From: Candidatus Woesearchaeota archaeon
GTDB lineage: Archaea > Nanobdellota > Nanobdellia > Woesearchaeales > 0-14-0-80-44-23
Reading direction: 5' to 3'
DNA: 64,000 bases
Assembly: GCA_038874135.1 (NCBI GenBank)
Contig: JAVZCZ010000001.1
Location: 640,001 to 704,000 of the forward strand
Under the pieces are notes generated by a model. The model worked only from the letters and a program-made list of their open reading frames with translations, searched no databases and had not been told where the DNA came from. A program made the translations under genes and the position numbers. Shown here piece after piece: positions 9,186 to 16,044 of the stretch; position 1 is the stretch's first letter, and each line of letters starts with the position of its first letter.

Positions 9186-9258
9186 AGCCTCTGGAGGGAC
9201 TTGCACCCTCGACCTACTGATTACAAGTCAGTCGCTCTAGCTCCTGAGCTACAGAGGC
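9186..9258 (-). tRNA. tRNA-Thr(UGU), intronless, CCA not encoded
   Basis: Cloverleaf GCCTCTG/CAGAGGC, D arm GCTC/GAGC, anticodon arm ACTGA-CTTGTAA-TCAGT, T arm GAGGG-TGCAAGT-CCCTC. Confidence 0.95.
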
Positions 9259-10903: not shown

Positions 10904-12259
10904 TCACCTGAACCTTATACTACTCCCGCCAACCTTTCCAACCTTCCTTACAAGCTGTTCAAGGTTTCGCGGAGTCCCGCCGGAGAATGCTTTTATAAGC
11001 TTCTTACTCTGTTTATACTGCTTTAAGAGCTCCCTGACATCCTTAGCAGATGTTCCAGAGCCGCGCGCAATCCTTTCAACCCTTCCAAAGTCAATTATTT
11101 CCGGATTTTCCAGTTCATATTTAGTCATTGAGTCCATAATGAACTTCCAGCGCTTAAGCTTTTCATCCTGCACAGAAATTAGCTCCTTAGGAATTGAAGC
11201 GCTGCTGAGTCCAGGAATCATATTTATAATGCTGCTGAGAGGTCCCATCTTTTTAACTGCTTGCATCTGCTCATAGAGATCTAATAGGTTAAAGTCTCCT
11301 TTCAGCATTTTATCTTTGATTTTTTCAGCATCTTTTTCAGAAATTGCATCTTTTGCTTTCTCCAGCAGAGCGTCTATGTCCCCCATTCCGAGCAGCCTTG
11401 AAACAAATCCTGCGGGGTTGAACTCTTCTAAGTCCTCAATTTTTTCTCCAACACCTATAAACTTGACCGGGGTTCCAGTCGCTGCGCAGGCAGATAGTGC
11501 ACCCCCTCCCTTGGCAGTGCCCTCCATTTTTGTTATTATTACCCCAGTTATCTTGCAGTTGGCATGAAAGCTTTCCGCCTGAAATCTTGCACTCTGTCCA
11601 ATGTCAGCACTTATTACGAGAAGGTTTTCATCCGGCAGGATGCGCTCGTAGAGAGCTCTTATCTCCCTTATCAACTCATCTGAGAGAGCATCCCTTCCAG
11701 CAGTGTCTATTATTGCTATGTCATACTTCTTTATCTCATCTTCAAACTTTTCATATATCTTTAAAGCATCTCCAAGCTTAGGATCGCCATATACTGGCAC
11801 GCCGATTGACCTTCCAAGCTGTGTGAGCTGTTCAAAGCCGGCGGGCCTGTATATGTCTGTTTGGAGCAGGCAGACTTTGAATCCTCTTTTCTGGAAGAAT
11901 CTTGCGAGTTTTGCAGCCTGGGTTGTCTTTCCAGAAGCGTACAGCCCCACTAGCATTATTTTGAAGTTTTTCTTGTTAACTTCTATCTTAGCGCCCTTTT
12001 CTCCGAGAAATCTGACAAGCTCTTCATAAACTATCTTTATGAGCTGTTCCTTCTTGCTAAGCCCGGGGGTTTCCTCTTTTAAAGCGCGCTCTCTTATCCT
12101 GCTGGAAAGTTCAAAAACCAGTTTTACATCCACATCAGATTGGAGAAGTGCCTTCTGAATCTCCTTCACAAGCTCATTTATCAGTTTTTCATCTACAAAT
12201 AGGCTTTGAGATATCCTCTTTAGCACTCCTCTGAGAGAATCTCCAAGTTTTTCCAGCAT
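10904..12259 (-). CDS. srp54: Signal recognition particle protein SRP54
   Basis: GLYASGKTT, DTAGR, TKMEGTAKGGGALS, RLLGMGD, M domain RIARGSG. Confidence 0.96.
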   Translation of the reverse strand: MLEKLGDSLRGVLKRISQSLFVDEKLINELVKEIQKALLQSDVDVKLVFELSSRIRERALKEETPGLSKKEQLIKIVYEELVRFLGEKGAKIEVNKKNFKIMLVGLYASGKTTQAAKLARFFQKRGFKVCLLQTDIYRPAGFEQLTQLGRSIGVPVYGDPKLGDALKIYEKFEDEIKKYDIAIIDTAGRDALSDELIREIRALYERILPDENLLVISADIGQSARFQAESFHANCKITGVIITKMEGTAKGGGALSACAATGTPVKFIGVGEKIEDLEEFNPAGFVSRLLGMGDIDALLEKAKDAISEKDAEKIKDKMLKGDFNLLDLYEQMQAVKKMGPLSSIINMIPGLSSASIPKELISVQDEKLKRWKFIMDSMTKYELENPEIIDFGRVERIARGSGTSAKDVRELLKQYKQSKKLIKAFSGGTPRNLEQLVRKVGKVGGSSIRFR

Positions 12260-12311
12260 TTTATACTGAGCATTCTAAATCTTTTTATAAATTTATTGCG
12301 GAACCCATCCT

Positions 12312-12350
12312 AATCCAAAAGTTTATATACCTTTGGCGGTTTTTTGGATT
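12312..12350 (+). promoter_or_regulatory. thrS promoter: TATA box (TTTATATA) inside a 9-bp inverted repeat AATCCAAAA/TTTTGGATT
   Basis: Direct reading of 12312-12320, 12322-12329 and 12342-12350. Confidence 0.5.
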
Positions 12351-12379
12351 TTGGGCTATCTTTTGAAGTTTTTTATTAT

Positions 12380-12411
12380 TTTTTCAAGCCCTGTTGTAGA
12401 GGGATGAAAAA
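12380..12411 (+). promoter_or_regulatory. Candidate thrS operator hairpin mimicking the tRNA-Thr anticodon arm
   Basis: TTTTTCA..CCCT-[GTTGTAG]-AGGG.TGAAAAA; 7-nt loop with U-UGU-A; 3' arm covers the RBS and the A of ATG. Confidence 0.5.
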
Positions 12412-14315
12412 TGGTCGTAGTAAACATGGGAAATTCTAAGCACGTATTTAAAAGCGGAATTACCTGTAGTGAGATTGCAGGCTCTCTAAATATTAAAGAC
12501 GCAGTTGCTGCTAAGGTTGATGGAGAGCAGGTTGACCTGTCATACCGCGTGGATAAGGATTGCACTCTTGAGTTCATAAAGCTGTCCTCTTCAGATGGGC
12601 TAACAATCCTTAGGCATACAGCAGCGCACATACTCGCACAAGCAGTTCTGAGATTATTTCCCAAAGCTCTTCTGACAATAGGGCCAGCTGTGGAAGATGG
12701 CTTTTATTACGACATAGACCATGAGCCTTTCACCCCGGAAGACATTAAAAGGATTGAAGAGGAGATGCATAGAATAGTCAAAGAAAACCTTCCAATCATA
12801 AGGGAAGAGATTTCAAAAGAAGAAGCATTGAAGCTTTTCAGCAAAAATCCTTACAAGATTGAGATGATAAATGAGCTTCCAGGCGGCATTGTTTCAATTT
12901 ATAGGCAGGGGGAATTCTTTGACCTGTGCAGGGGCCCACACCTTCCGTATACCTCTCTTGTGAAGGCGTTTAAGCTTACTAAGATTGCAGGCGCATACTG
13001 GCGCGCAGACGCTAAAAACAAGCAGTTGCAGAGAATATACGGCATCGCATTTCCGGAAGAAAAGCAGTTAAAATATTACATTACCATGATGGAAGAGGCA
13101 GAGCAGAGGGACCATAGGAAGATAGGAAGAGAGATGGACCTGTTCAGCTTTCACGAAGAGGGCCCGGGATTTCCTTTCTTTCACCCAAAGGGCGTAATAA
13201 TTCTAAATGAGCTCGTTCAGTTCTGGAGGGAAGAGCATTCCAAGGCAGGCTATCAGGAGATAAAGACGCCGATAATTCTTTCAAAGACACTCTGGGAGCG
13301 CAGCGGTCATTGGGAGCACTACCGCAATAACATGTACTTCACTAAGATTGATGAGAAGGACTTTGCTGTAAAACCGATGAACTGCCCAGGAGGCATTTTA
13401 GTATACAAATCCTCCCCTAAGAGTTATAGGGATCTTCCTCTCAAACTTTCTGAGCTCGGATTAGTGCACAGGCACGAGCTTTCAGGAGTGCTCTCGGGAC
13501 TATTCAGGGTGAGGTGCTTCACTCAGGACGATGCGCACATCTATGTTACAGAGGACCAGATAGAGGAGGAGGTAGTGAATGTTGTCAGACTGGTAGACAA
13601 GTTTTACAAGAAGTTCGGATTTGAATACCATGTAGAACTATCCACCAGGCCTGAGGATTATATGGGCGAACTTGAACTTTGGAATAGAGCAGAGTCAAGC
13701 CTTAAGCACGCTTTAGAATCCTTAGGAATGAAATATAAGATTAATGAGGGAGACGGAGCATTTTATGGACCTAAGATAGACTTTCACATAAAGGACTGCA
13801 TAGGCAGGACATGGCAGTGCGGCACTGTTCAGCTGGACTTTCAGATGCCCATAAAATTTGACCTGGAGTATGACGGGCAGGATGGAAAGAAGCACAGGCC
13901 AGTGATGATTCACAGGGTTGTTTATGGAAGTCTTGAGAGGTTCTTAGGCATTCTTATTGAGCACTACGCTGGAAGGTTCCCGCTTTGGCTGGCTCCAGTT
14001 CAGGTCAGAATTCTTACGGTTGCGGACAGGCATAATGAGTATGCTTCTCAGATAGAAAACATGCTCTCATCTAAGAAGCTGAGGGTTGAACTGGATTCGA
14101 AGGCTCAGACCATCGCCTATAAGGTGAGAGACGCTCAGCTGCAGAGAATTCCAGTGATACTCACAGTGGGTGATAAGGAAGTAAGCTCCAGAACAGTTGC
14201 ACTTAGGACTCTGGACGGAAGGGTTAAGTTTAATGTTGATCCAGCTAAGCTGACTGAAATCCTCATAAGGAATGTTGAGGAGCGCTCTAACTCTTTAGAG
14301 CTTGATGGAATTTAA
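12411..14315 (+). CDS. thrS: Threonyl-tRNA synthetase, bacterial type (TGS and SAD editing domains)
   Basis: RHTAAH, DLCRGPH, RDHRKIG, KPMNCP, RVRCFTQDDAH, GAFYGPKID. Confidence 0.97.
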   Translation: MVVVNMGNSKHVFKSGITCSEIAGSLNIKDAVAAKVDGEQVDLSYRVDKDCTLEFIKLSSSDGLTILRHTAAHILAQAVLRLFPKALLTIGPAVEDGFYYDIDHEPFTPEDIKRIEEEMHRIVKENLPIIREEISKEEALKLFSKNPYKIEMINELPGGIVSIYRQGEFFDLCRGPHLPYTSLVKAFKLTKIAGAYWRADAKNKQLQRIYGIAFPEEKQLKYYITMMEEAEQRDHRKIGREMDLFSFHEEGPGFPFFHPKGVIILNELVQFWREEHSKAGYQEIKTPIILSKTLWERSGHWEHYRNNMYFTKIDEKDFAVKPMNCPGGILVYKSSPKSYRDLPLKLSELGLVHRHELSGVLSGLFRVRCFTQDDAHIYVTEDQIEEEVVNVVRLVDKFYKKFGFEYHVELSTRPEDYMGELELWNRAESSLKHALESLGMKYKINEGDGAFYGPKIDFHIKDCIGRTWQCGTVQLDFQMPIKFDLEYDGQDGKKHRPVMIHRVVYGSLERFLGILIEHYAGRFPLWLAPVQVRILTVADRHNEYASQIENMLSSKKLRVELDSKAQTIAYKVRDAQLQRIPVILTVGDKEVSSRTVALRTLDGRVKFNVDPAKLTEILIRNVEERSNSLELDGI

Positions 14316-15344
14316 TCATTCAAGAACGCCTTCCCGTTTTTTTATCTCTTTTATTAACTCTTCTCTTTTGAAGTCTTCTCCCAGTTTCTTTCTTATCTCA
14401 AATTCAACTCTATAAGCATTGTAGTTTTTCATGATCTTATCTACATAATTTATGATTTCTTTTGCCTTATCCTTCGGGTATGAATAATATTCTGAACAGG
14501 CTTTTTCTATGTATGGAACTAAGTCTTTCCACTCTTGCTCCCAGTATGCCTTGCCATTATCTCTAGATGCCATTTTTACAGCGTCTCTAACTACGCTTTG
14601 ACCACCGTTGTATGCAGCGAGTACCAGCTTTAAGTGTTCCCATCTTAGTTTGTAGTATCTTGCTGAATCTCTTTCTTTAAGCCATTCGGGCGGCTCGCAG
14701 AATTTAAGGTAGCTCTCCTTCTCATTAAGTATTTTTATTCCAGCCCTTATATTTGAATATGGGTCAAATCTGTTCTTCCAATCTTCTGCACTGACGCTGT
14801 TACGCATTATCTGCATCAGGCCTGAAGCTCCGCATTCAGATATACACCTTTCATTCCAAGTGCTTTCTGATTCTATTATTGCAGCTATGAGGGCAATGTC
14901 TTTCATTTTAGAGAATTCGTTTAGGATGTTCCAATATTTTTCAGGCATGTTTATTCTCTGGTAATTTTTTATGTAGTATGCCATTTCAGCTTCTGGAATT
15001 TTAGAAAGCACTTCTTCAAGAGATTTGTTGTTAGCTCTTGTCTCTTTCAGCTGCATTCTCTGAGCAGTAGCTTCCAAACCTTTCAGCTCCACACCGCAAA
15101 TTCCAGGAGTTTTGCCAATGTTAATCTGGACTACATTTGATGTTTCATAATTTTGTGTTTTATAGCAATCATACTTCTTGTCTTTTGAAATTCCCTTCGC
15201 AATACCCAGAGCCAGCAGTCCAACTCCGATAATTCCTGCTGCTGCTTTAATCAAGTTTTTCTTTCTTTTCCTTTTTTCTTCATAATCCAATCTGCCGGCA
15301 TCAGGGTTATTATACATGAATCGGAGCATCGGGTCTTTTTCCAT
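14316..15344 (-). CDS. Membrane-anchored lytic transglycosylase (SLT/GH23 domain)
   Basis: LIAAIIESES, GASGLMQIM, FDP..NI.AG, LAAYNGG, E..NYV.KI motifs; N-terminal TM after a basic stretch. Confidence 0.85.
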   Translation of the reverse strand: MEKDPMLRFMYNNPDAGRLDYEEKRKRKKNLIKAAAGIIGVGLLALGIAKGISKDKKYDCYKTQNYETSNVVQINIGKTPGICGVELKGLEATAQRMQLKETRANNKSLEEVLSKIPEAEMAYYIKNYQRINMPEKYWNILNEFSKMKDIALIAAIIESESTWNERCISECGASGLMQIMRNSVSAEDWKNRFDPYSNIRAGIKILNEKESYLKFCEPPEWLKERDSARYYKLRWEHLKLVLAAYNGGQSVVRDAVKMASRDNGKAYWEQEWKDLVPYIEKACSEYYSYPKDKAKEIINYVDKIMKNYNAYRVEFEIRKKLGEDFKREELIKEIKKREGVLE

Positions 15345-15369
15345 ATTTGTTACTAAGTAGTAGTGATAT

Positions 15370-16044
15370 TTAAATCTTTTGTTTTTTCGCGTTATCAAAT
15401 AGTATTTTCATAATAAGAAACAATATGACTTCTTCAATTGCTGTTGCTATCAAAACAAAAAACAGCCCATCCATAAAGAACCTTTCTGGAAAAAAAATTA
15501 GGATTCTGCTCCCTAAAGGAAACTGCCAGTTTCCCATTTTAAAAAATATTGCATGAAAACCAATGAAAGCTGCTGAGAAAACATTCCTAAAACAAACTGA
15601 AAATCCTAAGATAATCACTAGAAAGAAAGTGGCAAAAATCATTTTTCTAAGACATACAAAAAAATTATCCAGCATAGCTGTACTTACTGCTAACATCATA
15701 AGTAAGCCTGCCAAACAGACAATATAAACCTTAAACCCGAATTTAAACAAATTCTTAACATCATTCAGATGAGACGCTTCTTCTACACTAAAAATCCCCT
15801 CGCTGAGGGAAGCCCTTCCAACTAAAAAATCTGGGAATGTGTTAATGAATGATTCTGCGTCTTCCCTTGCAATTCCTACCTGTTCCAGCTCGCCATAAAT
15901 ATTTAGACGGTAGAACTCAAGCCTATACCATGTCTCACTGAAGGCAAGTGCGAAAGTGTTTGAAAGCATTAGAATAAATAGCAGGATTAAAGCCGCTAAG
16001 AAAGAAGATATCCAGCATAGTGCAACCTTGCTAATCTTTACCAT
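15370..16044 (-). CDS. DUF1461/TIGR01906 (Lit-like) integral membrane protein
   Basis: E..HL.DVK.LF, F..FH.IFF..GNWQF and FPE.FF motifs; four TM segments. Confidence 0.7.
   Translation of the reverse strand: MVKISKVALCWISSFLAALILLFILMLSNTFALAFSETWYRLEFYRLNIYGELEQVGIAREDAESFINTFPDFLVGRASLSEGIFSVEEASHLNDVKNLFKFGFKVYIVCLAGLLMMLAVSTAMLDNFFVCLRKMIFATFFLVIILGFSVCFRNVFSAAFIGFHAIFFKMGNWQFPLGSRILIFFPERFFMDGLFFVLIATAIEEVILFLIMKILFDNAKKQKI

Follow-up and report, generated by a model that had tools for sequence, protein, structure and literature searches.

A candidate single-hairpin operator resembling the tRNA-Thr anticodon arm in the thrS leader of a Woesearchaeales archaeon

Translational feedback by an aminoacyl-tRNA synthetase (aaRS) through imitation of its tRNA is a textbook case, worked out for the threonyl-tRNA synthetase (ThrRS) of E. 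coli and proposed for a few yeast enzymes. The locus described here raises the question of whether an archaeon regulates a synthetase in this way. It lies in a 64,000-nucleotide stretch (the window; G000:C1:640001-704000) of the complete genome (909,956 bp, 41% G+C) of a member of the Woesearchaeales (DPANN), in which the thrS gene, encoding a bacterial-type ThrRS, is preceded by an RNA hairpin at window positions 12380-12411. This hairpin is likely to be a minimal, one-hairpin translational operator of thrS that works as the E. coli operator does. Since its loop recurs on other stems in several related lineages, ThrRS probably represses its own synthesis in this archaeon.

The hairpin consists of a lower stem of 7 bp (U12380-A12411 to A12386-U12405), an internal loop (A12387 and G12388 facing A12404) and an upper stem of 4 bp (C12389-G12403 to U12392-A12400) closing the loop G12393-UUGUA-G12399. 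Set beside CUUGUAA, the anticodon loop of the tRNA-Thr(UGU) encoded in the same window, the loop GUUGUAG has equal size and coincides with it at U33, at U34-G35-U36 and at A37. The hairpin therefore displays a 7-nt anticodon-like loop with both the G35 and the U36 of tRNA-Thr. Hereafter we refer to hairpins of this kind as mimics.

The same hairpin holds the signals for translation initiation. Starts in this genome are of two kinds: leaderless, with a TATA peak at -30, and led by a Shine-Dalgarno (SD) sequence, with GGAG at -14, GAGG at -12 or GGTG at -10; the 3' end of the 16S rRNA reads GGATCACCTCCT. Since GAGG at 12399-12402 stands at the genome's SD position of -12, the SD is formed by the end of the loop and the 3' arm of the upper stem. 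An initial annotation, made from the sequence, had described the hairpin with its 7-bp lower stem, small internal loop and CCCU/AGGG stem, had placed U-UGU-A in the register of the tRNA-Thr loop, and had located the ribosome-binding site (RBS) and the A of AUG in the 3' arm. Sequence and folding reproduced the first of these claims, comparison with the local tRNA-Thr(UGU) at 9186-9258 confirmed the second, and the third is borne out by the canonical position of GAGG and by A12411 being the A of the start codon. The coordinates of these and other features are collected in Table 1.

Table 1. Features of the thrS locus, in window coordinates.
Feature	Position	Strand	Remarks
Lower stem, 5' arm, UUUUUCA	12380..12386	+	Pairs with 12405-12411; only UCA/UGA retained in the closest relative, L231/L277
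Upper, anticodon-stem-like 5' arm, CCCU	12389..12392	+	Paired with P > 0.95 in the 68-nt leader 12353-12420; same in L231/L277
Anticodon-loop mimic GUUGUAG, 7 nt	12393..12399	+	U33 = 12394, U34-G35-U36 = 12395-12397, A37 = 12398
Shine-Dalgarno GAGG(G)	12399..12403	+	Last loop base plus upper 3' arm AGGG (12400-12403); GAGG 12399-12402 starts at -12
Lower stem, 3' arm, UGAAAAA	12405..12411	+	Last base is the A of AUG
thrS, bacterial-type threonyl-tRNA synthetase, 634 aa, presumed repressor	12411..14315	+	Pfam TGS, tRNA_SAD, tRNA-synt_2b, HGTP_anticodon
Predicted thrS promoter, BRE-like CCAAAAG and TATA box TTTATATA (12322-12329)	12315..12329	+	Position weight matrix score 13.2
Predicted leader, 5' part, GGGCUAUCUUUUGAAGUUUUUUAUUAU	12353..12379	+	From sequence and folds
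tRNA-Thr(UGU), the molecule imitated	9186..9258	-	ARAGORN; anticodon arm ACUGA-CUUGUAA-UCAGU
SRP54 gene	10904..12259	-	Upstream of thrS, divergent
SLT-domain lytic transglycosylase gene	14316..15398	-	Directly 3' of thrS

We next consider the recurrence of the hairpin in other thrS leaders. Loci of thrS (L numbers; G numbers denote genomes) were gathered by protein similarity from species-representative genomes, metagenomes, a protein-cluster database, a set of 60 genomes of relatives and a 400-genome sample of the order. A motif scan found hairpins with the loop G, U or A, then UUGUA, then G, U or C, just 5' of GGAGG or GGUG in other thrS leaders. The mimic-bearing leaders are L231/L277; L003, L285, L286, L287, L038, L007, L245 and L268; L004 and L006/L236; L005; and L248. 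The closest relative, L231/L277 (80% ThrRS identity), retains CCCU-UUUGUAG-AGGG on a remodelled lower stem. UUGUA is invariant in the 11 archaeal hairpins of our first alignment (A1), whose rows were picked by the loop-motif scan, so the invariance of the loop and the pairing are partly by construction. UUGU is retained in 14 of 14 distinct archaeal hairpins.

A motif-free enumeration covered all hairpins of 4 bp or more with a 7-nt loop between -60 and +3 in 56 distinct archaeal thrS leaders. It returned 70 different loop cores, among which UUGUA was the sole enriched one, occurring in 9 of the 56 leaders (the next 5-mer occurred in 2). Over 2000 trials with shuffled leaders the mean was 0.18 and the highest count 4, corresponding to an enrichment of ~50-fold. 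By the ThrRS tree and pairwise identities, the nine leaders belong to at least five ThrRS lineages that are mutually 50-66% identical, and their stems are unrelated.

We also looked at the clade of L003, which was set by protein similarity (ThrRS 62-84% identical) and takes in every one of the five species sampled from a single GTDB genus. The hairpin is present immediately 5' of GGAGG in each of its 8 members; 95.8% of cells are paired as compared to 12-51% with slid partners, and double compensatory changes are found at three pairs (G-C/U-A, U-A/C-G and A-U/U-A). Searched against 77 non-training loci (324 kb), a covariance model of the 11 hairpins yielded 5 matches with E < 0.03, each of which lies in a thrS leader (next E = 6.8); three come from new species (L285, L286 and L287), and L236 and L277 are near-duplicates of training rows. 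Its sole match in G000 was the window hairpin, itself a training row. The alignment of relatives' thrS leaders that the initial annotation had put forward as a check thus showed the loop recurring on covarying stems in other Woesearchaeales, though in a minority of their lineages.

Turning to the presumed repressor, a protein similarity search of the genome gave a single strong ThrRS match, the product of the window thrS, and the closest named relatives of this protein are labelled Woesearchaeota metagenome-assembled genomes. Its domain order (TGS, tRNA_SAD, class II core, HGTP_anticodon) makes the architecture that of a bacterial ThrRS, with the N-terminal and C-terminal anticodon-binding domains of the E. 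coli repressor, and C-terminal residues 526-626 align to residues 536-636 of E. coli ThrRS (1QF6/1KOG). The pairing of a bacterial-type enzyme with an archaeal host, also proposed at the outset, stands: the domains are bacterial, the relatives are Woesearchaeota, and the genome uses promoters with a B recognition element (BRE) and a TATA box.

The predicted transcript would include the whole hairpin. A position weight matrix (PWM) built from 146 leaderless-gene promoters of G000 (seed median score 12.8) places the thrS transcription start site (TSS) at ~12352, upstream of the hairpin, for a leader of ~58 nt. On this prediction the hairpin sits in the thrS 5' leader, adjoining the SD and AUG. 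A second promoter in the internal T-rich box at 12369-12384 is unlikely, with a PWM score of 2.6 versus 13.2 for the upstream TATA box. The promoter motif is conserved in the family relatives L231, L001, L046 and L002, and the family likewise shares GGGCTATC at the predicted start. The block GGGCTATCTTTTKGRA-TTTTTTATT, located where the leader is predicted to begin, is family-wide (L231, L001/L232, L235, L278), also where the mimic is absent; its spacing is constant relative to the upstream TATA box and not relative to the ATG. Of 10 other mimic leaders, 7 have a predicted TATA box that puts the TSS upstream of the hairpin, and L003, L038 and L245 gave no TATA-like motif. In most other mimic-bearing leaders the predicted TSS is only 2-10 nt before the hairpin.

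A hairpin that encloses its own SD might act without any protein, damping translation or serving as an RNA thermometer in a hot-spring organism, in which case its likeness to the tRNA-Thr loop would be incidental. The SD and AUG do lie inside the stem, and the hairpin's predicted stability drops from -9.6 kcal/mol at 37 C (z = -2.2; 8 of 200 shuffles equally stable) to -2.3 kcal/mol at 70 C. The DNA also has a fitting origin, as a sequencing-run search found the stretch in three DNA runs of one hot-springs metagenome study. However, a thermometer or attenuator needs no conserved loop, whereas the UUGUA core is kept while the stems change completely. Furthermore, the motif is specific to thrS leaders, and the SD lies outside the stem in most relatives. 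The position of the G35 analogue is -15 in the window, -20 in L248 and ~-24 to -27 in most other lineages. We regard a protein-independent element as improbable. The thermometer matches returned by an Rfam scan of 12000-12800 were outside the leader and far below threshold.

An equally small probability attaches to the idea that the UUGUA loop is the target of a factor other than ThrRS, such as an RNA-binding protein, an RNase or a trans-acting RNA. In favour of such a factor are the single hairpin present here and the U that replaces A at loop position 37 in some members (GUUGUUG in L286, from G336, and AUUGUUG in L046, from G003). Yet domain 2 of the E. coli operator likewise departs from A37, and the element is found only before thrS, where it reproduces the anticodon loop of the tRNA that ThrRS charges. 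No other gene of G000 has it in its leader: thrS is the only gene with an NUUGUAN hairpin in a true 5' leader, and the others near start codons are inside open frames.

The initial annotation had further proposed a two-state switch, in which GGGC and UUGAAG near the start of the leader pair with the hairpin region to free the RBS, so that the leader toggles between this fold and the SD-sequestering mimic and ThrRS selects the state. The alternative pairs (GGGC 12353-56 with GCCC 12388-91, and UUGAAG with UUUCAA) can be drawn at -7.4 kcal/mol, the best fold with GGGC/GCCC enforced reaches -9.4 kcal/mol, and the closest relative L231 has both GGGC and GCCC. Nonetheless, the alternative is 2-6 kcal/mol weaker than the mimic (-9.6 kcal/mol alone; minimum free energy (MFE) of the leader with the mimic -11.5 to -13.6 kcal/mol), whose upper stem has a pairing probability above 0.9 in the ensemble. 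Conservation of GGGC is just as strong in G001-type leaders of the same family that have no downstream GCCC, which means there is no covariation for the alternative fold. In L231 an insertion separates the UUGAA/UUCAA partners, and the short distance from predicted TSS to hairpin in most other mimic leaders leaves no room for an anti-sequestor. We dropped this claim, and consider a switch of this kind quite improbable. Least credible is a chance hairpin without function in this genome: the stem is short and AU-rich, the stability of the complete 73-nt leader is unremarkable (z = -0.95) and the mimic is absent in a same-genus relative, but the 57 hairpins in G000 (2 x 910 kb) that combine an NUUGUAN loop with 4 or more stem pairs translate to ~0.002 expected per 58-nt leader, and the hairpin is common to the 80% identical relative and its loop strongly enriched in archaeal thrS leaders.

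Several observations weigh against the hairpin being a ThrRS operator. The E. coli operator has two symmetric hairpins (domains 2 and 4) and a single-stranded domain 3, matched to a dimeric repressor, whereas here there is one hairpin and no domain 3; neither the sequence nor the folds of 12353-12379 revealed a second anticodon-like hairpin with an NGU loop. The upper stem has just 4 bp, and loop positions 32 and 38 are G and G versus C and A in tRNA-Thr. Even in L231 the lower stem is without the five extra A-U pairs, UCA/UGA alone remaining. Among the residues that we take to contact the anticodon in E. coli ThrRS, the equivalents of E600 and R609 are kept, and that of N575 is Ala. The sequencing-run search for the stretch found no RNA run containing it. 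Finally, the distribution is patchy. Same-genus G001 and relatives (L232, L235, L278), as well as same-family G002, have the promoter and a long leader and no mimic; G003 has GCGG-CAUUGUUGA-CCGC, a variant with a 9-nt loop that keeps UUGU; and in the group at 64-65% identity, as in most Woesearchaeales thrS genes, starts are short or leaderless and the mimic is missing. Across 150 genomes of the order, a covariance model gave four weak matches (E 0.07-0.2), none near thrS, which we judged to be chance.

How, then, does the element compare with known systems? In E. coli, ThrRS acts as a repressor of thrS when it binds anticodon-like hairpins that adjoin the SD (PMC11088916, PMC9976931, PMC7373986). 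G35 and U36 are recognition elements for this enzyme (PMC4267643), and repression requires the N-terminal domains (PMC7373986), which have counterparts in the window ThrRS. The window element resembles this operator (domains 1-4; 1KOG) in belonging to the leader of a bacterial-type thrS, in its 7-nt-loop hairpin with U33-N34-G35-U36 adjoining the SD and AUG, in the N-terminal and anticodon-binding domains of the enzyme, and in the expected logic of competition among tRNA-Thr, mRNA and the 30S subunit. It differs in the loop itself (UUCGUGU in E. coli domain 2 versus GUUGUAG), which imitates UGU and not CGU; in the position of the G35 analogue (-32 in E. coli versus -15); in having the SD itself as the 3' arm of the mimic stem; and in its archaeal host with a BRE/TATA promoter, with no sequence homology between the two. 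With the two-hairpin symmetry of the E. coli operator unmatched, the element, taken as an operator, is a new variant working alike and not a member of the same RNA family. The string UUGUU is also present in the upstream hairpin (domain 4 region) of the E. coli thrS leader.

Anticodon mimics in mRNAs bound by synthetases are described in yeast for AspRS, HisRS and ThrRS-RPC10 (PMC9976931, PMC6542539, PMC9956033). There too, a synthetase binds an anticodon-like stem-loop of an mRNA and tunes translation, but the setting is eukaryotic and cap-dependent, with other mRNA positions and other enzymes or appended domains. The T-box (RF00230) regulates thrS of Firmicutes, among the nearest bacterial relatives, and likewise senses the status of tRNA-Thr; the T-box motifs AGGGTGGAACCRCG are found in the Firmicute thrS leaders L010, L014, L019, L024 and L239. 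In contrast to the ~32-nt element with its anticodon-sense UGU loop, a T-box binds the tRNA directly and offers a codon (ACN) to its anticodon. We rejected a T-box riboswitch for the window: there is no T-box sequence, the loop is anticodon-sense, and the Rfam scan of 12000-12800 at E <= 10 gave no match in the leader. No Rfam family exists for the element.

Import of the element with the gene from bacteria was also rejected, as the leaders of the nearest bacterial ThrRS genes (Desulfobacterales and Firmicutes) are without enrichment. The same enumeration in 143 bacterial thrS leaders found no enrichment of UUGUA (2 matches) and had U-rich loops on top. Weak AU-rich hairpins with anticodon-like loops were seen in four of the bacterial loci (UUUGUAU in L200, AUUGUAU in L223, UUUGUAU in L078 and CUCGUAA in L097), at -28 to -34 and directly before the SD; these are not statistically enriched in the 143-leader set. 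In a quick tree, the ThrRS of Desulfobacterales (~60% identical; loci L073-L094 and L155-L186) nests within the Woesearchaeales ThrRS clade as sister to the L153/L004 group. This nesting suggests transfer between DPANN archaea and sulfate reducers. The thrS leaders of Desulfobacterales show no consistent mimic.

Taking the hairpin as a ThrRS operator, we infer a TSS, ThrRS binding, repression and competition by tRNA that would fit together as follows. The mRNA would start near 12352-12353 from the BRE/TATA promoter and carry a leader of ~58 nt, in which the top of the hairpin (the CCCU/AGGG stem and the loop G-U-UGU-A-G) would imitate the anticodon arm of tRNA-Thr(UGU). When in excess over uncharged tRNA-Thr, ThrRS could grip the loop through G35 and U36 with its C-terminal anticodon-binding domain. 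Binding would clamp shut the SD-containing stem, whose base includes the A of AUG, or else sterically block the 30S subunit. Repression would be relieved by tRNA-Thr competing for the same site on ThrRS.

Other features of the locus and its relatives deserve mention. At 12404-12439 a short out-of-frame open reading frame runs across the thrS start (AUG at 12404; 11 codons, none of them for Thr). With its AUG a single nucleotide away from the SD, this frame is unlikely to be translated. The divergent SRP54 gene has its own TATA box at -31 on the opposite strand. Among the relatives, SRP54 is upstream of thrS in L278 only, and downstream in several others (L279-L283). An SLT-domain gene, unusual for an archaeon without murein, lies on the other side of thrS, an arrangement shared by L277, L278 and the P0010 contig. 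At G000:C1 771366 and 781947, outside the window, there is a pair of identical hairpins (uggua-CUUGUAA-ugcug) separated by 10.6 kb, with a loop that is exactly the tRNA-Thr(UGU) anticodon loop. Lastly, the leader of L287 (G255:C26, ~-100 to +3), one of the species in the L003 genus, is more elaborate (MFE -35 kcal/mol). Its mimic hairpin and GGAGG stand at -71; after them comes an insertion of 45 nt containing a second hairpin, CCUCCAAAC-AAA-GUUUGGAGG, where the proximal SD is sequestered by an anti-SD, CCUCC.

Our literature search found no published archaeal case of synthetase autoregulation by tRNA mimicry. On balance, we lean towards the view that such autoregulation exists in Archaea, with the bacterial-derived ThrRS of DPANN Woesearchaeales under the control of a minimal, single anticodon-arm mimic that was kept or re-invented in several lineages. 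The element described here, with the SD as the 3' strand of the mimic stem, would then be the smallest known of its kind and the first in Archaea. The element is small and comes with a clear prediction for loop mutants (G12396 and U12397). If ThrRS binds these 32 nt, the mechanism is compatible with archaeal SD-dependent initiation and one hairpin suffices for it. Binding would also show how, in a reduced, symbiont-type genome of 0.9 Mb, a gene gained by horizontal transfer acquires or retains its regulation.

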